From Candidatus Binatia bacterium (GTDB lineage: Bacteria; Desulfobacterota; Binatia; Bin18), in the NCBI GenBank assembly GCA_963666315.2, contig CAXXHG010000041.1:27625-91624 (forward strand): a DNA stretch of 64,000 nucleotides, given 5' to 3'. The stretch's first letter is position 1; each line of letters opens with the position of its first letter. Both the position numbers and the translations under genes were made by a program. The notes below the pieces were generated by a model. It ran no database searches and was not told where the DNA came from. It was given only the letters and a program-made list of their open reading frames with translations. Shown here one piece after another: positions 1 through 8,420 of the stretch.

Positions 1-2
1 GG

Positions 3-1025
3 GCTGAGCGGGTCGCGATTGCCGCCGAGGTGCGCAAAGCGTGGACGTGTACCCTGTGCACGGACCGCAAAGCGGCGCTGTCGCCCTCAGCAGTCACCGG
101 TGAGCACGATACCCACGGTGTCCTTCCGTCCGCCGTAGTCGAAATGATCCACCGCATCACCACCGATCCGGGCCGGCTGAGTAAGGACTGGTATGAGCGG
201 CTCTTAGCCGAGGGTGTAGAGGATACCCATTATGTCGAGGCGCTGGGGGTCGTCGTGCGCACGGTCAGTATCGATTCGTTTTGTCGCGGCCTGGGTGTTC
301 CCCTACATCCATTACCGACACCAATCCCAGGCGAACCGTCCCGTCGGCGGCCGCCGCAGGCCCACATGGAGGCTTCCTGGGTGCCGATGATTCCCAGCGG
401 GCAAGAAACCGGCCCCGATGCTGATATCTACTGGGGCCAGCCTGCTCCAAATGTCATCCGGGCAATGAGTCTGGTCCCAGACGAAGTGCGCGCCAGTATC
501 CATACTCTTATAGTGACGCACTACATGGAATTCGCCCAAGCCATGGATCCGACGACTAACGGCGGACGGGCTATTAGCCGCGCCCAAATCGAACTCTTGG
601 CGTCGCGCGTCTCCGCACTCAATCAGTGCTTCTATTGAACGGCTGCCCATGTGATGCAGCTCCGGGGGAGCAGCCCAACAAGTGAAATTGATCTACATGC
701 AGCCGTGAATGCTAACACAGAGAACGGCGTCCCTCACGGCGCCCTGCTGAATACGTTTGCCGAAGCCGTACTAGGCACGGATGACGTGCAGCTCGACACG
801 GTCCGAAACGCTATCGTCACAGAACTCGGCCCAGCCGCACTGGTCGATGCCGCCGCCGTGATCGGTGGATTTATGCAGATGGACCGCATCGCCGATGCTG
901 CCGGAGTTCCGCTGGATGACTTTGTGGTCGAGGCCACGAATGATGTCCGTGAAGACCTCGGCCTCCACAATTTTGCTTCCGCGCGGAATACGCTAGGGGT
1001 CGCCGGAACTCCGGGAACTCTTTGA
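3..1025 (+). CDS. AhpD/alkylhydroperoxidase-related selenoprotein, copy 1 (5' end outside window; Sec at UGA 636-638)
   Basis: ORFs 30..638 and 651..1025 are in one frame, joined by TGC TTC TAT TGA ACG GCT GCC CAT = C-F-Y-U-T-A-A-H. This is an AhpD-like CxxC..H motif after SRAQIELLASRVSALN. A hairpin follows the UGA. Confidence 0.85.
659..671 (+). promoter_or_regulatory. putative bacterial SECIS hairpin
   Basis: GCTCC-GGG-GGAGC; loop starts 25 nt after the UGA. Confidence 0.65.
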
Positions 1026-1124
1026 TGACGTCGAGGTGTTCCGGCCAGAAGGGTTTCGCAGTGTGAGTAATCGCGCGGCGACTTTTTATATCGGCGTAGG
1101 GCCGACAGAAAGGGAGGGAGTATC

Positions 1125-2255
1125 ATGACCACTATCTCGTATGCCAGCGCTAGCACCCCAGTGCGGGCCGATCTTGTCGAGGCGCACCAACAGTTGTGGC
1201 AAAAACTGGCTGAGCCGGGCGCCTGGTGGACGGGGGCCGAGCGGGTGGCGATTGCCGCGGAGGTGCGTAAAGCCTGGACATGCACCCTGTGCACGGACCG
1301 CAAAGCGGCGCTGTCGCCCTCTGCAGTCACCGGTGAGCACGATAATACCCACGGTGTTCTTCCGTCCGCCGTAGTCGAAATGATCCACCGCGTCACCACC
1401 GATCCGGGCCGGCTGAGTAAAGACTGGTATGAGCGGCTCGTCGCCGATGGTGTAGAGGACACTCATTATATCGAGGCACTCGGCGTTGTCGTCCGGACGG
1501 TCAGTGTCGATTCGTTTTGTCGGGGCGTGGGCATTCTCCCACATCCATTACCGACACCAATCCCAGGCGAACCGTCCCATCGGCGGCCACCACAGGCCCA
1601 CATGGATGTCTCCTGGGTGCCCATGATTACTAGTGGTCAGGAAACCGGCCCCGAGGCCGATCTGTACTGGGGCCAGCCCGCCCCAAATGTCCTGCGGTCA
1701 ATGAGTCTGGTCCCGGATGAGGTGCGTGCAAGTATGCATATTCTTATGGGGGCGCATTACATGGGACTCGCCCAGGCTATGGATCCGACGAGCAACGGAG
1801 GACGGGCCATCAGCAGAGCCCAGATCGAACTCTTAGCGTCGCGCGTCTCCGCGCTCAATGAGTGCTTCTATTGAACAACCTTCCATGGCATGCTGCTCCG
1901 GGGGAGCAGCCCAACAGGTGAGATTGATCTGGATGCAGCCGTGAATGCGAGCACGGAGAACGGCGTCCCTCACGGCGCCCTGCTGAATACGTTTGCCGAA
2001 GCCGTGCTAGGCACGGACGACAAGAAGCTCGACACGGCTCGCAACGCCATCGTCGACGCCCTTGGCCCGGCAGCGCTGGTCGATGCCTCGGCTGTTATTG
2101 CGGCATTTATGCAAATGGACCGGATGGCCGATGCCACCGGAGTTCCGTTGGATGACTTTGTGGTCGAGGCCACGAATGATTTCCGTGAAGACATCGGCCT
2201 CCACGCCTTTGACTCAGCACGGAATACGGTGGGGGACGCGGCAACTCTTCGTTGA
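1125..2255 (+). CDS. AhpD/alkylhydroperoxidase-related selenoprotein, copy 2 (376 aa, Sec250 at UGA 1872-1874)
   Basis: GGAGG RBS and ATG 1125. ORFs 1125..1874 and 1890..2255 are in frame across C-F-Y-U-T-T-F-H. N-terminal CTLC motif. Close paralog of copy 1. Confidence 0.88.
1892..1910 (+). promoter_or_regulatory. putative bacterial SECIS hairpin
   Basis: perfect 8-bp stem GCTGCTCC-GGG-GGAGCAGC; loop 25 nt after the UGA. Confidence 0.75.
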
Positions 2256-2319
2256 TGCAAGGTGTTCGGCTTCGAATTACATCCGCAGATCTTTTTTTAA
2301 TGAGGGGAGTAACACCAGT

Positions 2320-3372
2320 ATGGATTTAGGGATTTTATTCATCGCCGATACCACCGTCCATCAACAGGCAACCCTCGCCCAGCAGGCTGAGAGCAGCGGA
2401 TTCGCTTCGCTGTACATGGCCGAGGCCTACCGCAGCTGTTGGGTCCCGTTGACGGCTATGGCCGCCGCGACGAGTACAATCCGGCTCGGCCCCTACATCC
2501 TCAATGCGTACGGCCACAGTCCATTGATGACGGGTATGGCGGCGGTCGACTTCAACGAATTTAGCGGCGGGCGCCTGTTACTCGGTATCGGCGCCGGGAA
2601 TCGCCAGATCAATGAACAGTGGCATGGGGTCCCTCACGAGCGTGCGCTCACAAAGATGCGCGAATATGTGACCCTGCTGAAACTAATCGCACGCACACGC
2701 CGCGGTGAAACGCTTAAATATGCAGGCAAGATCCACCACATGGACTGGACCCCCACCGCCGATCCGGGCGACCAACCGTTTCCGGTCTATCTCGCCGCAG
2801 TCTTCCCGCGCATGACGCGCATAGCAGCGCAGGTCGCGGACGGGATTGCTGGGGGCGGAACCTTATCTGCAGAGTATTTGCGCGATGTGGTGAAGCCTCA
2901 GGCCGCCACCGCCGCCGCGGACGTTGACCGGGACCCGGCGACCATAGGCTGGAAGGCAGTGTCATTGATTGCAGTCAACCACGATCGTGAACGCGCCCGC
3001 CGCACCGCACGCGAAGCAATCTGTCATCTGTATGCGCCGCTGCCGCATCCCTATTACGAGTACACCATGCGTGAACAGGGATTCGGTGAGGCAGCCGACG
3101 CACTGTTAAAACTCATGCCGGCGGGCAAACTGGAGGCGGCTGTGGACGCTATCCCAGACGAGTGTGTCGACCGACTGACGATCGCGGGGACGCTTGAGGA
3201 CTGCCGGGAACGGATTGCTTCTTACGAGGGAGTGGTGGATGAACTCATACTCGCTAATGTGGCACCTGCAGCCGACGGTGACATGATGCGCGTCTATGCG
3301 CCACTGATGCAACTCGCCGGAGCGGCCTCTTTGGCGTCGGCGCCGCGCCCAGGGAACGGAACAAGCCCTTGA
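2320..3372 (+). CDS. LLM-class flavin/F420-dependent oxidoreductase (Mer-like)
   Basis: MDLGILF start after GGGGAG RBS; AEAY, IRLGP, SGGRLLLGIGAG and PVYLAA motifs. Confidence 0.85.
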   Translation: MDLGILFIADTTVHQQATLAQQAESSGFASLYMAEAYRSCWVPLTAMAAATSTIRLGPYILNAYGHSPLMTGMAAVDFNEFSGGRLLLGIGAGNRQINEQWHGVPHERALTKMREYVTLLKLIARTRRGETLKYAGKIHHMDWTPTADPGDQPFPVYLAAVFPRMTRIAAQVADGIAGGGTLSAEYLRDVVKPQAATAAADVDRDPATIGWKAVSLIAVNHDRERARRTAREAICHLYAPLPHPYYEYTMREQGFGEAADALLKLMPAGKLEAAVDAIPDECVDRLTIAGTLEDCRERIASYEGVVDELILANVAPAADGDMMRVYAPLMQLAGAASLASAPRPGNGTSP

Positions 3373-3561
3373 GTTTCTTTGCGGGCGGAAGATGCGTGCA
3401 GAACAGAAAAGCCCACGAGCCGAATTCGCTCGTGCTCGCACAAACGATCTTCGATGATCTTTGATGATCTTTATTGACACTCCGGAATTGACTTGGACAC
3501 TACTCGTTAAAAAAGGAATGCCTGGTAGGATGCTCCCATTCGTTCCAGAAAGGAGCTGTGT

Positions 3562-4723
3562 ATGCAAAACGGCAATGGCGCAATCACCACAGGGGCAATC
3601 GACGCGGATGGCCATGTTTTAGAGCCACCTGATTTATGGGAAACCTATTTAGAGCCCAAATATCGCGACCGGGCCCTACGGATTCGCACCAATAGGGATG
3701 CTGGAAATCCTTGAAATCGACGGCAAGCAATCCTGGACCGGTTATCCCGGTTTTCCCGGTCAGCTCGGTGGGATGGGCAAGGAGGACATCGATCCCCGGC
3801 CCGACCGAACATACTTGCGTGGCGCGCCGGCGGGTTCAATGGACCCCAAAGAACGGGTCGCCAGGTTAGATGAAGAAGGTTTGGCCAAGGCGATCTTATA
3901 TCCTACTCTGGGACTCTTCTTGGGTGAGATTAAAGATCCCGAACTGGCCACGGCCCACTGTCGCGCCTACAACCGCTGGATCCTTGATTTCTGCTCAGAG
4001 TCTGGTGGACGGCTAATCCCTATCGCCCAAGTCACACTGGACGACGATCCGCATAACGCGGCTGCGGAGTGAGAACGAGCAGTGAAAGACGGGGCCAAAG
4101 GAGGATTCTTTTTACCCTTTACTTGGAAAAAGCAGTCGCCCGGCCACCCACACTTCGATCCGTTGTGGGCGAAGGCCGAAGAACTCGGCGTTCCATTAGG
4201 CATCCATCCCACAGCCGATCCACCTGAACTCGATGTACATAAGAGGTTTTCCGAACTCGCGCAAGGTGATCAGTTCGACTTCACCTGGTATATGGACGTG
4301 CTCGTTTCCCAGGGCATGGTTCAGTCGTTTGTATCGCTCTTTCACTATGGCCTGTTCGATCGTTTTCCTCAGGTTAAATTGGTCGTGCTGGAATCCCAAG
4401 CAGGTTGGACCGGCCATATTTTGGACCGGATGGATGCCGTCTGGCGTAGCCCCTTAGGCAAAACCACCCGCATGAAGGAATCGCCCAAAACGTATTTTAA
4501 TCGCCAGTGCTGGGTTTCTGCCGATCCGGATGAGCAGATGGCCTCGGCGGTGATTAACGCGGTGGGGAGCGATCGTTTCTTCTGGGCGTCGGATTTTCCG
4601 CATCCGGATCATATCAGCCATTACATGCAAGCCTTAGGCGATATGATCGCTCCGCTGTCGGAAGAATCACAACACCAGATTCTGTGGGAGAATGTGAGTA
4701 AGGCGTATAATTTGGGCGAGTAA
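3562..4723 (+). pseudogene. amidohydrolase_2 family, disrupted
   Basis: IDADGHVLEPPDLW from ATG 3562; frameshift near 3695; in-frame TGA at 4070 in AAE*ERAV; C-terminal WASDFPHPD. Confidence 0.8.
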
Positions 4724-4773
4724 AAAATGTACGCAGAAACACCTTACGGCGTAGAGCGCGCAGACGATCCAGA

Positions 4774-4826
4774 CCAGCAGCGCTGGTCGATGTAGCCACC
4801 GTTATTGCGGCATTTATGCAGATGGA
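4774..4826 (+). repeat. relic fragment of the AhpD-related gene
   Basis: encodes PAALVDVATVIAAFMQM; matches 2067-2119 (PAALVDASAVIAAFMQM) at DNA level. Confidence 0.75.
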
Positions 4827-4839
4827 AAGGAGGCAAGCC

Positions 4840-4977
4840 ATGGAATCCCAAGCCATCTCAGCTGACTTTCCGTATGCGGCCCACTTCGTGGACGTGCACG
4901 GCTCACAGATACACTACGTCGAAGCGGGAGCGGGAGATCCCATCTTATTTCTGCACGGCAATCCCATCTCGCCGTAG
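4840..4977 (+). pseudogene. haloalkane dehalogenase N-terminal fragment
   Basis: AGGAGG RBS, then MESQAISADFPYAAHFVDVHGSQIHYVEAGAGDPILFLHGNP followed by a stop. Confidence 0.75.
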
Positions 4978-5028
4978 TGGTATTGCGACAAACCAAAAAG
5001 ATTGAGAATTAGGGATTGGGGATAGACG

Positions 5029-6244
5029 ATGCACGACAACGACCAAGCCATGCGCGATTTTGCAGCGACCCTAGCGGTACCGGAATTCGAAGACACCGCT
5101 TTCACCACACCGCCGGCGCTCCGGGAGGCGCGCGTGGCAATCGTGACGAGCGCCGCGCTCAGCAGCAGCGGCTGGATCTCACAGTGGCAGGCCGAAAAGT
5201 GGGATTTCGCAGATTTCCACTTCGAGACTCTCCCGCACGACGTACGCGATCTGGAGCTCGGCCACGTGAGTCCGAACTTTGATCGCGCTGGCTTTGCCGC
5301 CGACCTGAACGTCGTTTACCCAGTCGACCGTCTGCAGGAACTGGCTGACCAGGGCGTGATCGGCAGTGTCGCGGCCTCCCATTACTCGTTCGCCGGCAAC
5401 CAACCCGAGGGGCTGTCCGCGCTGCGGCTGGATACCGGACCGGCCTGCGCCAAAAAGATGCTCGAGGACGGAGTCGACGTCGTTCTGCTCACCCCCGTCT
5501 GACCCCTGTGCCCGCGTACCGGGTGTACGCTCGCCCACGTCTTCGAGGCTGCTGGCCTGTCAACGGTCATAATCGCGTCGATACGCGACGTCGCCGAACG
5601 CATGCACCCACCGCGGGCGCTGTATGTGGAGTACCCGTTGGGGCTGCCCCTCGGAAAGCCGCGCGACGCCATGTTTCAGCACCGCGTACTCGAAGCGGCC
5701 TTTGCGCTGTTGGAGCAGCCCACGGGACCGGTCCTCGTGGACTTTCCGGAGACGATCCAAAGCAAGGGCGGTGAGCCGTTGGCGTGCGCCCTCCCCCCCC
5801 CCCCGCTACGACCCGAACTTGCACCCGGCCATCGACGAAGCACAGGCGCTGCGCGGTGCATATAATCGAGCCGTGGCGAAAAATGGGCGGACCAGCGTGG
5901 GACGGGCGATCACTGCGGAACAGATTCCTGGAGCCATTGAGAAGTTTGTTCAAATCACCGACGGCCAAGCCTGGGATCAGGTTGGGTTTAACGCCCCGCT
6001 GATGCAGGTGACGACTGATATCCGGGCGTACTACGAAGAGCTAGCTGTCGAGTTGGTGGACGGTGGTCCGATTGCGGCATGGGGCGCCGAGCGCTGGTTC
6101 TACGATAAGACCGAGGCGGGTAAGGTGTTGTTAGCGGCGCGCGAGGAGCTAAAGAAGGCCGGCGCACCGTTCCTGATCTGGTGGCATATGGCGCCGGGGT
6201 CGCGCCAGTCCGGTATGGAGCAAATGAAGAATGTCTCGGTGTGA
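5029..6244 (+). CDS. PrdB/GrdB-family (proline/glycine reductase selenoprotein B-like) selenoprotein with C-terminal extension; Sec158 at UGA 5500-5502; frameshift in C12 tract
   Basis: VAIVTSAAL, DLNVVYPVDRLQELADQGVIG, DGVDVVLLTPV-U-PLC, then EAAGLSTV..PPRALYVEYPLGLPLG in frame. The C-terminal domain continues in the +1 frame after poly-C 5793-5804. Confidence 0.82.
5514..5530 (+). promoter_or_regulatory. putative bacterial SECIS hairpin
   Basis: GCGTAC-CGGGT-GTACGC; GGG lies 18 nt after the UGA. Confidence 0.65.
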
Positions 6245-6379: not shown

Positions 6380-7234
6380 ATGGCAGAAAACAGTACGTAT
6401 ACACCAGCGAAAGTTTGGCAGTGGAATAAAAAGAATGGCGGCCGGTTTGCCAACATCAACCGGCCCACGGCGGGCGCGACGCACGACAAAGAACTCCCGG
6501 TCGGCGAGCACGCCTTGCAGCTCTATTCTCTGGCCACGCCCAATGGCGTCAAGGTCACCGTCCTGCTGGAAGAGCTCCTCGAGCTCGGCATCAAAGAGGC
6601 CGAGTACGATGCCTACCTGATCGACATCGGCGAGGGGGATCAATTCGGCAGTGGCTTTGTGGCCATCAACCCCAATTCCAAAATCCCCGCGCTCCTTGAC
6701 CGTAGCACTACCCCACCCACCCGCGTCTTTGAGTCAGGTGCCATGCTCGTCTATCTGGCGGAAAAATTTGGCGCCTTCCTGCCGACCGAGCCTTCCGCTC
6801 GCGCGGAATGCATGTCGTGGTTGTTCTGGCAGATGGGCAGCGCGCCCTACCTCGGCGGCGGGTTTGGGCATTTTTATGCCTACGCCCCGGAAAAGTTCGA
6901 GTACCCTATTGATCGCTATACGATGGAGGTGAAACGCCTATTAGATGTGTTGGACCGCCATCTCAGCGAACAGCAGTATTTGTGTGGTGACGACTATACG
7001 ATCGCAGACATGGCCAACTACGCCTGGTATGGCATGTTAGTAGCACACAATGGCTATGAAGCCGCAGAGTTTCTTGACGTCGGAACGTATACGCATGTGC
7101 TCCGGTGGGTGAAGGAGATTGAAGCCAGGCCTGCCGTACAACGAGGCCGACGCGTGAACAAGTCCTGGGGACCAGAGGAAGAGCAGCTCATCGAGCGACA
7201 CAGCGCAAGCGATTTCGATGCGCCGACTGCCTAA
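6380..7234 (+). CDS. yghU: glutathione-dependent disulfide-bond oxidoreductase (GST Nu class)
   Basis: FANINRPTAGATHDKELPVGEHALQLYSLATPNGVKV, NPNSKIPAL, FESGA. Confidence 0.92.
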   Translation: MAENSTYTPAKVWQWNKKNGGRFANINRPTAGATHDKELPVGEHALQLYSLATPNGVKVTVLLEELLELGIKEAEYDAYLIDIGEGDQFGSGFVAINPNSKIPALLDRSTTPPTRVFESGAMLVYLAEKFGAFLPTEPSARAECMSWLFWQMGSAPYLGGGFGHFYAYAPEKFEYPIDRYTMEVKRLLDVLDRHLSEQQYLCGDDYTIADMANYAWYGMLVAHNGYEAAEFLDVGTYTHVLRWVKEIEARPAVQRGRRVNKSWGPEEEQLIERHSASDFDAPTA

Positions 7235-7255
7235 GAATTGGAAGGAAACAGTCAT

Positions 7256-7741
7256 ATGGCAGAAGAAAAAGCAGAGCTGGGTTGGGCAGATCTAATGAAA
7301 ATGGTCGCAGAAGTCGGTTCCGACAACGGCCCAGGCTCAAAAGCATGGAAGGCGGAAGGGTCGGAGACCAAGCGCGACAACAACGGCAAAGTACCCGGCG
7401 AACTCGCAGATATGCCGGCATTGATCATCACCACTACCGGCTCGAAGACGGGCGAAAAGCGCGCCGTGCCTTTGGGCTATCAGCTCGTGGACGGTCGGCT
7501 TCTGGTTATCGCGTCGATGGCCGGCGCAGAGAGAAACCCGCCGTGGTTCAACAATCTGGTTAAAACCTCTGAGGTCTTAGTTGAAAAAGATGGTGAAAGC
7601 TTTTCAGCCAATGCTGTCGTGACACAAGGCGACGATAGGAACTATTTGTTCCAGAAAATCTGCGCGAGCGAGCCCACGTTTGCGGCATATGAAGCGCGCA
7701 CAGATCGCGTCATTCCAGTCGTAGAGTTGCGGCGCAAATAG
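7256..7741 (+). CDS. deazaflavin (F420)-dependent nitroreductase family (Ddn-like)
   Basis: ITTTGSKTGEKRAVPL, IASMAGAERNPPWFNNL, YEARTDRVIPVVEL. Confidence 0.85.
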   Translation: MAEEKAELGWADLMKMVAEVGSDNGPGSKAWKAEGSETKRDNNGKVPGELADMPALIITTTGSKTGEKRAVPLGYQLVDGRLLVIASMAGAERNPPWFNNLVKTSEVLVEKDGESFSANAVVTQGDDRNYLFQKICASEPTFAAYEARTDRVIPVVELRRK

Positions 7742-7796
7742 CAAGAAGTCTGTCCGATCGCAGTAAAGTGTACATTGTATTGCCACTGTTCCCCCC

Positions 7797-7898
7797 CCCT
7801 TCGACCCTGCTCAGGGCAGGCTTCGACAGGCTCAGGGCGAATGGGAAGAGCGGCGCTGGCCCAGGCCCGTTCGTGCTGAGCTCGTCGAAGCATGAACG
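7797..7898. repeat. REP-like palindromic element (CTTCGACAGGCTCAGGGCGAA family)
   Basis: paired inverted units; a related copy is at 26712-26744. Confidence 0.7.
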
Positions 7899-7952
7899 CG
7901 TACTGGTGTTCAATGAGGAAGCCAGCCCGTTTGTTAAGAGGGAGGGGCGGGC

Positions 7953-8420
7953 ATGGAACGAATGACTCCTGAAGAATGTCGAAGTTTCCTGCGCAGTCCG
8001 GTGCGGACCGGAAAGCTGGCCACCGTGCGGAAGGATGGCCGGCCCCTTATCGTGCCCGTGTGGTATGACCTTGAGGAGGAGACGCTCGTCTTTATGACTG
8101 GGCGGGACTCGGCCAAGGCAAGGAATATGCGCCGCGATCCCCGTGTCAGTGTGTGCGTAGATGATGAGGTGACACCATTCGCGTATGTCGAACTCGCGGG
8201 CACAGTCGTCCTGTCCAACGATGCAGACCAAATGCGCTATTGGGCAACGCGGATTGGCGGGCGCTATATGGGGCAGGAGTTAGCCGAGACCTACGGGAAA
8301 ATAAACAGCGGTGCAGGAGAACTGATCGTGCACGTCACGCCGACGCATCTGCATGGCTATAAAGATCTGACAGGTCGGTACCCACAGCCAGCGCAGCTGC
8401 AAGGGAGGGATGTCGTGTGA
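7953..8420 (+). CDS. PPOX-class F420-dependent oxidoreductase
   Basis: TGKLATVRKDGRPLIVPVWY, KARNMRRDPRVSVCVDD. Confidence 0.85.
   Translation: MERMTPEECRSFLRSPVRTGKLATVRKDGRPLIVPVWYDLEEETLVFMTGRDSAKARNMRRDPRVSVCVDDEVTPFAYVELAGTVVLSNDADQMRYWATRIGGRYMGQELAETYGKINSGAGELIVHVTPTHLHGYKDLTGRYPQPAQLQGRDVV

Follow-up and report, generated by a model that had tools for sequence, protein, structure and literature searches.

Organization of the locus

We analyzed a 64,000-nt stretch of contig CAXXHG010000041.1 from a Candidatus Binatia bacterium (hereafter, the window). At its left end lie two genes in the same orientation, 85% identical to each other, each of which is interrupted by an in-frame TGA codon. 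The features of this region, all on the forward strand, are as follows.

<1..1025, +: copy A, NF041238 gene, predicted selenoprotein; 377 codons including Sec, stop codon TGA at 1023-1025 (read-through translation, profile match)
636..638, +: in-frame TGA of copy A within C-F-Y-U-T, predicted Sec (sequence; TGA at this column in the best 80/80 loci)
656..674, +: copy A hairpin, SECIS-like; loop CGGGG between stem arms 656-662 and 668-674, which mispair once (A.A, 658 with 672) (alignment, pair counts)
1026..1124, +: spacer between the copies, with a purine-rich ribosome-binding stretch (GAAAGGGAGGGAG) ahead of ATG 1125; paralogous to the leader of copy A (two 70-nt leaders compared)
1125..2255, +: copy B, NF041238 gene, predicted selenoprotein; 376 residues including Sec, stop codon TGA at 2253-2255 (read-through translation, profile match)
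1872..1874, +: in-frame TGA of copy B, predicted Sec U250 (sequence; TGA at this column in the best 80/80 loci)
1892..1910, +: copy B hairpin, SECIS-like; loop CGGGG closed by seven pairs (1892-1898 with 1904-1910) (folding, alignment, pair counts)
2320..3372, +: luciferase-like (LLM) oxidoreductase gene, co-oriented neighbor (PF00296, 194 bits)
4774..4831, +: 58-nt remnant of a third gene copy, encoding ...ALVDA..FMQMD... (direct-repeat family D3, 83% identity to copy B)

Copy A starts outside the window, its ATG lying 108 nt before the window start (at C41:27516). The tandem repeat unit is 1233-1236 nt long, ∼65 nt of leader included. In copies A and B, respectively, TGCTTCTATTGAAC is present at 627-640 and 1863-1876 (CFY-TGA-T spans 627-641 and 1863-1877), and CTCCGGGGGAGCAGC at 660-674 and 1896-1910, starting in both cases 24 nt past the T of the TGA. 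The codons between the TGA and the hairpin element have diverged (T-A-A-H-V-M-Q in copy A, T-T-F-H-G-M-L in copy B). In the read-through translation of copy B, the motifs are C53-T-L-C56 and C247-F-Y-U250-T-T-F-H254. The original prediction described two co-oriented tandem paralogs that share a CFY-TGA motif and a hairpin element at equal spacing with diverged codons in between, together with an N-terminal CTLC motif and a CxxU..H site; direct reading of the sequence and of the read-through translations bore out this description.

The tandem junction is spanned by contigs from three runs of three studies (X1, 939-1313; X2, 915-1310; X4, 762-1223), where X1 is possibly the source sample and the run mapping used contigs only. 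A JGI contig (L113), 99% identical, also bridges it. The tandem arrangement was observed at only one other of the best 80 loci (L024), and no tandem pair was found in the 60 relatives searched.

Both copies belong to a catalogued selenoprotein family

The NCBIfam model NF041238, 'alkylhydroperoxidase-related (seleno)protein' (AhpD_rel_CFYUT), has a curated cut-off of 175 bits. It matched copy B with 458.9 bits (model positions 1-356) and the part of copy A inside the window with 425.4 bits (26-357). When scored on the genome, the whole gene of copy A gave 464.9 bits (1-357) and copy B 450.3 bits (1-356). The earlier statement that an AhpD-related (seleno)protein family with this motif had been modeled was correct, since NF041238 matches far above its cut-off. 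Both copies have the C-F-Y-U-T that defines membership, the predicted U being encoded by the in-frame TGA. The Pfam CMD model (PF02627) scored 25.9 bits for copy A and 20.1 bits for copy B, against a gathering threshold of 23.

According to the text of a 2026 review, the NF041238 family is the 'hypothetical protein 1' of the Sargasso Sea selenoproteome (PMC13188914; PMC1088965). Both copies are plain members of this family, catalogued since 2005 and already known. The likeness extends to the full-length model match (1-357), C-F-Y-U-T, the TGA in frame and the hairpin that follows it, and the proteins show no difference from the family. Only details of the locus differ, and newness is limited to these: the tandem pair, the relic of a third copy and an upstream gene for an AhpD-fold selenoprotein.

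The family occupies 502 loci in a species-level genome collection. Among the matches listed in public proteins, 118 of 120 cover ≤66% of the query, as expected of products truncated at the TGA. Gene finders usually split this gene, and reading it whole restores the correct catalytic domain. No biochemical study of the NF041238 family was found among the papers searched on AhpD selenoproteins and on prokaryotic sestrin/AhpD. The family is widespread and nearly always has Sec, and the tandem pair would supply two naturally occurring forms with which biochemical work could begin; the knowledge of recoding and of AhpD chemistry is not changed by it.

Predicted fold and active site

The AlphaFold2 model of copy B was confident (pLDDT 94.9) and predicts an AhpD-like, all-helical fold with two AhpD-like lobes in one chain. 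A single AhpD domain (residues about 188-342) runs continuously across the TGA at 250. The best match to the whole model was Sestrin2 5cuf_A (Z 16.7, residues 1-341, 242 aligned, rmsd 3.7), and single AhpD-like chains were matched by the same comparison (VIA-align 2): 2pfx_B (Z 12.8), 3lvy_A (11.9), 2gmy_A (10.8) and 1gu9_A, which is M. tuberculosis AhpD (7.8). A Foldseek search of the PDB gave no match at E ≤ 0.001 (best 4.7e-3). In a profile search of PDB sequences, the C-terminal half matched D. radiodurans AhpD 6k40 (E 3.4e-15), whose E, C, C and H line up with E235, C247, U250 and H254. Among 59 sequences, the latter four residues are invariant. C53-x-x-C56 in the N-lobe is also invariant, and is located at the helix start equivalent to the C-lobe site. 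Comparison of the N-lobe and C-lobe profiles by hhalign placed CxxC over CxxU (E 2e-4 over 119 columns), at a probability of only 47%.

The C-lobe shares its fold and the aligned E...C-x-x-C/U-x-x-x-H with M. tuberculosis AhpD (1gu9/1knc) and D. radiodurans AhpD (6k40), both of them CxxCxxxH alkylhydroperoxidases/AhpC reductases. The copies differ from these in having Sec for the second Cys and, at the N-terminus of the same chain, a further AhpD-like lobe that has a CxxC of its own, and no AhpC or lipoamide-system genes lie near them. Sestrin2 (5cuf) and the bacterial fused double-AhpD 'Sestrin analogues' described in the text of PMC11429811 likewise combine two AhpD-like lobes in a single chain. 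However, the identity to Sestrin2 is 14%, the copies keep the cysteine/selenocysteine of the C-lobe active site, and the Sestrin family was absent from a Pfam scan at E ≤ 0.1, which returned CMD only. The resemblance to Sestrin is one of architecture and not of family membership.

The internal TGA codon is conserved

TGA occupies the Sec codon in all of the best 80 related loci, which come from several phyla, in 38/38 matches in 30 related genomes and in 7/7 matches in a phylum sample. This retention places the observation beyond chance. Among the 401 genomes of the phylum sample we found only TGA forms and no Cys-form DNA of the family. Two rare full-length relatives (P0036 and P0075) have CFYC at the aligned column, that is, Cys for Sec.

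The genome encodes the machinery for Sec insertion. A tRNA-SeC(tca) gene was detected by aragorn at C43:403982-404077, beside selA. The scores were 592.8 bits for selA (cut-off 267.9), 378.3 bits for selB (cut-off 242.25) and 308.3 bits for selD (cut-off 125). We are highly confident that the internal UGA of each copy is read as selenocysteine and that each copy is one NF041238 protein of ∼376 residues. The selection on UGA recoding that had been proposed for this pair is borne out by the conservation of the TGA, the covariation of the hairpin and the purifying selection after the TGA.

A covarying hairpin follows the UGA

Bacterial SECIS elements are stem-loops located shortly downstream of the UGA and conserved as structures. 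The hairpin of the present genes begins 17 nt downstream of the UGA and has, in the alignment, 6-7 pairs and the loop CGKGN. Pairing was observed in 90.2% of the cells, compared to 27-52% when the partner was slid. Columns 27 and 33 form CG in 71 rows and UA in 6, a compensatory change that leaves no row unpaired, and the observed covariation score was attained by 0 of 500 shuffles. Third-codon positions within the hairpin are near-fixed (column 24 is G in 77/77; column 30 is T or G only; column 36 is C in 74/77), and those in columns 6-21 ahead of it vary freely. This conservation is partly confounded by that of the peptide L-L-R-x-S-S. When folded singly, the hairpins of the two copies showed no stability beyond that of shuffles (z -0.29 and -1.22), and therefore the structural case rests on covariation. 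An Rfam scan of positions 1-4000 (E ≤ 10) gave no match. Having the location and the structural conservation of a bacterial SECIS, the covarying hairpin is predicted to be the SelB element.

Divergence of the two copies

Comparison of copies A and B gave a dS of 0.41 and an omega of 0.205 (0.287 after the TGA). For copy A and its L024 ortholog, omega was 0.152 overall and 0.113 after the TGA, the latter from 6 synonymous and 2 non-synonymous changes. The pair stems from a tandem duplication that is old (dS about 0.4), and purifying selection maintains both copies. In a tree of close relatives, both copies fall within one 13-row clade, whose inner branching lacks resolution.

A stretch just upstream of the active site differs between the copies (HTLIVTHYMEF in A, HILMGAHYMGL in B), and had been taken as a hint of sub-functionalization. 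This idea found no support. The stretch lies where the family varies most (conservation 0.19-0.6), and the 54 columns that differ between A and B are in general less conserved than the identical ones (median 0.46 vs 0.58). At well-conserved columns, there are five differences, V/I, A/S, A/S, A/T and L/I, and dN/dS is 0.2.

Alternative readings of the UGA codons

The A.A mismatch raises the question of whether copy B alone is efficiently recoded, copy A being poorly expressed or a decaying duplicate. A standard pair at the mismatched position (columns 23-37) is absent in only 2 of 77 distinct rows, copy A (with its L024 ortholog) being one of them. The local fold of copy A is also weaker (-18.0 vs -22.5 kcal/mol for copy B), and the 58-nt relic shows that gene copies do decay at this locus. 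We nevertheless consider this reading improbable. The L024 ortholog carries the same mismatch, and omega between the two is low (0.15 overall, 0.11 past the TGA); among relatives of its type, identity to copy A reaches 96% (P0006, which with P0007 forms the nearest tree rows). Six of the seven pairs persist, and a longer alternative stem is predicted. A contig from an RNA library (run X17) with 99% identity to copy A covers 513-693 including the TGA, where DNA carry-over is possible.

A much smaller probability attaches to the UGA acting as a terminator, so that each copy would be a split or decaying gene whose N-terminal product has 248-249 residues and which perhaps also yields, from a start of its own, a C-terminal product of 121-124 residues. 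Start codons are indeed present shortly past the TGA (GTG 651 and ATG 654 in copy A, ATG 1890 in copy B), and public gene callers give such pieces for 118 of the 120 relatives listed. However, no ribosome-binding stretch precedes 651 or 1890, and the AhpD domain crosses the TGA. A decaying gene would not keep the TGA in 80/80 loci of several phyla, the Cys-containing relatives are continuous, omega past the TGA is 0.29 and 0.11, and the full Sec machinery is present in the genome.

The least probable reading, next to negligible, is that UGA is decoded as one of the standard amino acids (Trp, Cys or Gly) through a reassigned code or near-cognate suppression: the frame would be open whatever sense meaning the TGA takes, but 471 of the 1664 long open frames in the genome, both copies included, end in TGA, which is therefore an ordinary stop here and the code is not reassigned, while the dedicated tRNA-SeC, SelA, SelB and SelD, the hairpin, conserved and covarying at a constant spacing as SelB-dependent recoding requires, and the alignment of the position with a redox Cys all point to Sec.

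Proposed mechanism

With the UGA read as selenocysteine, the ribosome would be guided at the internal codon by SelB bound to the short hairpin 17 nt downstream. The C-lobe holds the AhpD-type set E235...C247-x-x-U250-x-x-x-H254 as its predicted catalytic center. On the AhpD analogy, the U250 selenolate may attack an oxidized substrate, which could be a hydroperoxide or a protein sulfenate/disulfide (e.g. an oxidized peroxiredoxin), and C247 may resolve the adduct to form a selenenylsulfide. A cellular dithiol, possibly acting through the CxxC of the N-lobe, would re-reduce it. In this scheme, the chemistry, the substrate and whatever part the N-lobe cysteines may play are inferred.

Neighboring genes

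The proposed check upstream of the window revealed one more AhpD-fold gene, the third here, which likewise contains a TGA in frame but belongs to another subfamily.

C41:26222-27457, co-oriented: P0125, double-domain CYYU protein of AhpD fold with an in-frame TGA (TIGR01926)

P0125 scored 131 bits with TIGR01926 (cut-off 81.8). 'AhpD-like 1' selenoproteins of this TIGR01926/COG2128 type appear in the text of a report on ocean metagenomes (PMC2398784). They share with copies A and B the CxxU in an AhpD fold and are common in marine bacteria; the copies, however, score under the cut-off of TIGR01926 (37.7 and 41.5 bits) and have the extra N-lobe. Among the matches listed for P0125 in public proteins, 119 of 120 start after its UGA. 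P0184 was considered as a Cys form of P0125 and rejected, as the motif-bearing segment is simply absent from it.

P0125 had no match at E ≤ 1e-30 in the 60 relatives, and a tblastn search placed it near the gene in 0/91 related loci. A metagenome scan with P0125 returned 4 short contigs only. The three-gene order recurs in the 99% identical JGI contig L113; in L114 (74% identical), the 520 nt downstream contain no NF041238 match. Among these contigs, therefore, the three-gene order is seen only in the organism of the window itself.

The three co-oriented AhpD-fold TGA genes might constitute one selenol redox relay module, in which the paralogs would be specialized for different oxidized partners and the N-lobe CxxC would donate electrons to the CxxU of the C-lobe. 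P0125 would then stand for a fusion-type selenoprotein for which there is no dedicated curated model and of which the databases contain almost only truncated pieces of ∼310 residues. We regard this proposal as doubtful.

When ORFs of ≥120 residues were clustered, each neighbor family occurred in at most 11 of the 80 loci (the flanks of L102-L112 span just 1.5 kb), and no conserved neighbor hints at a substrate or reductant. A co-oriented LLM oxidoreductase gene does follow copy B, as originally predicted, but a link between them found no support: an LLM relative lies near the gene in 1/91 related loci, on the opposite strand there (tblastn). By these comparisons, the LLM gene is a neighbor, and its partnership with the selenoprotein genes has no support. 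The LLM protein itself resembles F420-dependent families, although none of the top-scoring NCBIfam F420 LLM families reached its cut-off.

The tandem pair and its family

The two co-oriented paralogs at the start of the window, copy A (<1..1025) and copy B (1125..2255; residue numbers follow copy B), were searched with the NCBIfam models. Both were far above the curated cut-off (175 bits) of NF041238 (AhpD_rel_CFYUT, 'alkylhydroperoxidase-related (seleno)protein'), with 458.9 bits for copy B and 425.4 bits for the part of copy A inside the window; scored over the whole model at the genome level, the values were 464.9 and 450.3 bits. The observation of tandem AhpD-related CFYU selenoprotein paralogs in the original prediction, and its main interpretation, were correct. 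The copies are ordinary members of an NCBI-curated selenoprotein family known since 2005, when 'hypothetical protein 1' was presented as a new family of selenoproteins in which a CXXU motif is conserved and a SECIS-like stem-loop is present (PMC1088965). The tandem pair and a local cluster of Sec genes are only minor additions to this.

The window begins inside the copy A gene, whose start lies at C41:27516 on the source contig, 108 nt before the window (C41:27625-91624). With TGA read as sense, no stop interrupts frame 3 between the first base and the TGA at 1023-1025; the copy B frame begins with ATG at 1125 and closes with the TGA at 2253-2255. Each copy has one internal TGA (636-638 and 1872-1874, respectively) in the context TGC TTC TAT TGA AC. 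As had been noticed, CTCCGGGGGAGCAGC begins at the same distance in both, 24 nt past the T of TGA, while the seven intervening codons differ. The repeat has an offset of 1233-1236 nt and takes in ∼65 nt of leader, and 318 of the 378 aligned residues are identical.

The junction between the copies was spanned by contigs of three runs from three studies. An independent JGI contig (L113) runs from the upstream gene through copy A into the beginning of copy B, and a Chloroflexota MAG contig with 94% DNA identity (L024) has an A-type copy followed by the start of a B-type copy. Therefore, the tandem arrangement is real and not an assembly artefact. The A-type copy of L024 (2978-4001) is without its first ∼90 codons, and upstream of it the frame runs on into unrelated sequence, so that the locus is either rearranged or chimeric in the assembly. 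Tandem copies elsewhere were found in L024 only. The one other adjacent pair, in a Rhodospirillaceae MAG (L099), is tail-to-tail (4001-5104, +; 5122-6222, −) with a TGA in each gene; among 61 related genomes, those with multiple copies have them dispersed.

Evidence for selenocysteine at the internal UGA

The genome encodes tRNA-SeC (anticodon TCA) 53 nt from selA, as well as selB and selD, all above curated cut-offs. TGA is also an ordinary stop here, as it terminates 471 of the 1664 stop-to-stop frames of ≥350 codons, plus both copies themselves. In a collection of 5.8 billion proteins, 118 of the 120 listed relatives span ≤66% of the query, as expected of products cut at TGA. The other two, P0036 and P0075, span 95-96% and have C-F-Y-C at the Sec column. 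A species-level genome collection yielded 502 stretches encoding relatives, and the aligned codon was TGA in all 80 loci kept (67 scored by a first pattern, the remaining 13 by a looser one). The family occurs in 30 of the 61 related genomes, with one in-frame TGA in 38/38 matches. In an even sample of the phylum it was present in only 6 of 401 genomes, with TGA every time.

We built a gap-free alignment of 82 sequences (77 distinct), each covering 48 nt that start with the TGA. Columns 21-27 pair with 33-39 around a CGKGN loop. Standard pairs occupy 90.2% of the cells; shifting the 3' partner by 1-3 columns lowers this to 27-52%, and 500 column shuffles all scored below the observed covariation. 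Every row is paired at 27-33, with CG in 71 and UA in 6, and the 22-38 pair occurs as CG, UG, AU and GC. Third-codon positions within the hairpin are near-fixed (G in 77/77 at column 24, T or G throughout column 30, C in 74 rows at column 36), whereas all four bases occur at those of columns 6-21, which points to selection acting on the RNA in addition to the peptide L-L-R-x-S-S. Together with the invariant TGA, the pairing and covariation support the proposal that UGA and hairpin are under selection for recoding. When folded as a single hairpin, the stem of neither copy was more stable than shuffles, and the region had no match in Rfam. In copy A, CAG replaces the CTG of the family, giving an A.A mismatch in the stem; the L024 ortholog shares this change.

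Comparison of the copies gave dS 0.41, dN 0.084 and omega 0.205 (0.163 before the TGA, 0.287 after). This divergence indicates that the duplication is not recent. Between copy A and its L024 ortholog omega was 0.152 overall and 0.113 after the TGA, the latter based on a mere 6 synonymous and 2 non-synonymous changes. The values after the TGA indicate that this segment is translated and constrained in both copies. The hint that the copies have sub-functionalised found no support in these sequences. Most differences fall in variable columns: median conservation is 0.46 at the 54 columns where they differ and 0.58 at the 316 identical ones, variability within the family peaks at residues 203-216, and all five differences at well-conserved columns are conservative.

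Predicted fold and chemistry

An AlphaFold2 model from 59 read-through sequences was all-helical (mean pLDDT 94.9). Its top whole-model match was human Sestrin2 (Z 16.7, 242 residues aligned, rmsd 3.7, residues 1-341). Among single AhpD-like chains, the C-terminal half matched Bmp8 and 2pfx (both Z 12.8), 3lvy (11.9), 2gmy (10.8) and Mycobacterium tuberculosis AhpD (7.8); with Foldseek alone, nothing matched at E ≤ 0.001. In sequence profiles, residues 188-340 matched Deinococcus radiodurans AhpD (E 3.4e-15), whose E, C, C and H align with E235, C247, U250 and H254, all invariant in the 59 sequences. The N-lobe and C-lobe profiles aligned with each other over 119 columns (E 2e-4, probability 47%), placing the invariant C53-x-x-C56 over C247-x-x-U250. 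Thus, the structure matches and the lobe alignment indicate a fused double AhpD fold. From the residue roles in AhpD, U250 would be the attacking nucleophile and C247 the resolving residue, and the N-lobe dithiol might act as a relay or metal site. Sestrin-like bacterial proteins with fused double AhpD folds are already discussed in the literature (PMC11429811).

Genes around the pair

The luciferase-like (LLM) gene adjacent to copy B (2320-3372) was recognized as such (PF00296, 194 bits), with all F420-type NCBIfam families under their cut-offs. The hint of a link to the selenoproteins found no support: of 91 loci with the NF041238 gene, a single one had an LLM relative nearby, and there it was encoded on the other strand. 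No neighbour family was common to more than 11 of 80 loci. Further downstream are:

3562-3714, 3698-4072 and 4082-4723 (together 3562-4723), +, Amidohydro_2-type gene in three successive frames
4774-4831, +, relic (58 nt) of a third NF041238 copy with 83% identity to copy B
4840-4977, +, short ORF right after the relic
5029-6244, +, PrdB/GrdB-like gene (PF07355; TIGR04483 68 bits, below cut-off)
6380-8420, +, run of redox genes, comprising a glutathione-dependent disulfide-bond oxidoreductase (NF008731, 510 bits) and the two genes listed next
7238-7741, +, deazaflavin-dependent nitroreductase/F420H2 quinone reductase-like gene
7953-8420, +, PPOX-class F420-dependent oxidoreductase

The Amidohydro_2-type gene is either broken or affected by assembly errors. 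The relic and the following ORF, presumably an alpha/beta hydrolase cut off after its N-terminus, suggest a past rearrangement at 4774-4977. In the PrdB/GrdB-like gene, TGA occurs in frame at 5500-5502 (T-P-V-U-P-L-C), and the reading frame is later broken in a poly-C run near 5786-5805, by either a genuine frameshift or a homopolymer error in the assembly. Several F420-type genes lie near the NF041238 pair.

Upstream of the window, where a check for more copies had been suggested, we found an additional AhpD-fold gene with an in-frame TGA:

C41:26222-27457 (= L008:478-1713), +, gene of P0125, 411 residues, two AhpD-like domains, just upstream of copy A

P0125 scored 131 bits on TIGR01926. Its TGA lies in S-S-C-Y-Y-TGA-T (SSCYY-TGA-TETIG), and the second domain has C-Q-Y-S. 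Among its 120 best database relatives, 119 are ∼310-residue pieces starting after the TGA; the TGA is retained in L116, a metagenome relative with 65-78% identity. Searching 60 related genomes with P0125 gave no match at E ≤ 1e-30. The genome has four more AhpD-like frames, each with one in-frame TGA and under the NF041238 cut-off:

C43:596360-596977
C21:180493-181050
C22:23331-23669
C15:145622-145933

These four frames suggest a genome rich in putative AhpD-fold selenoproteins.
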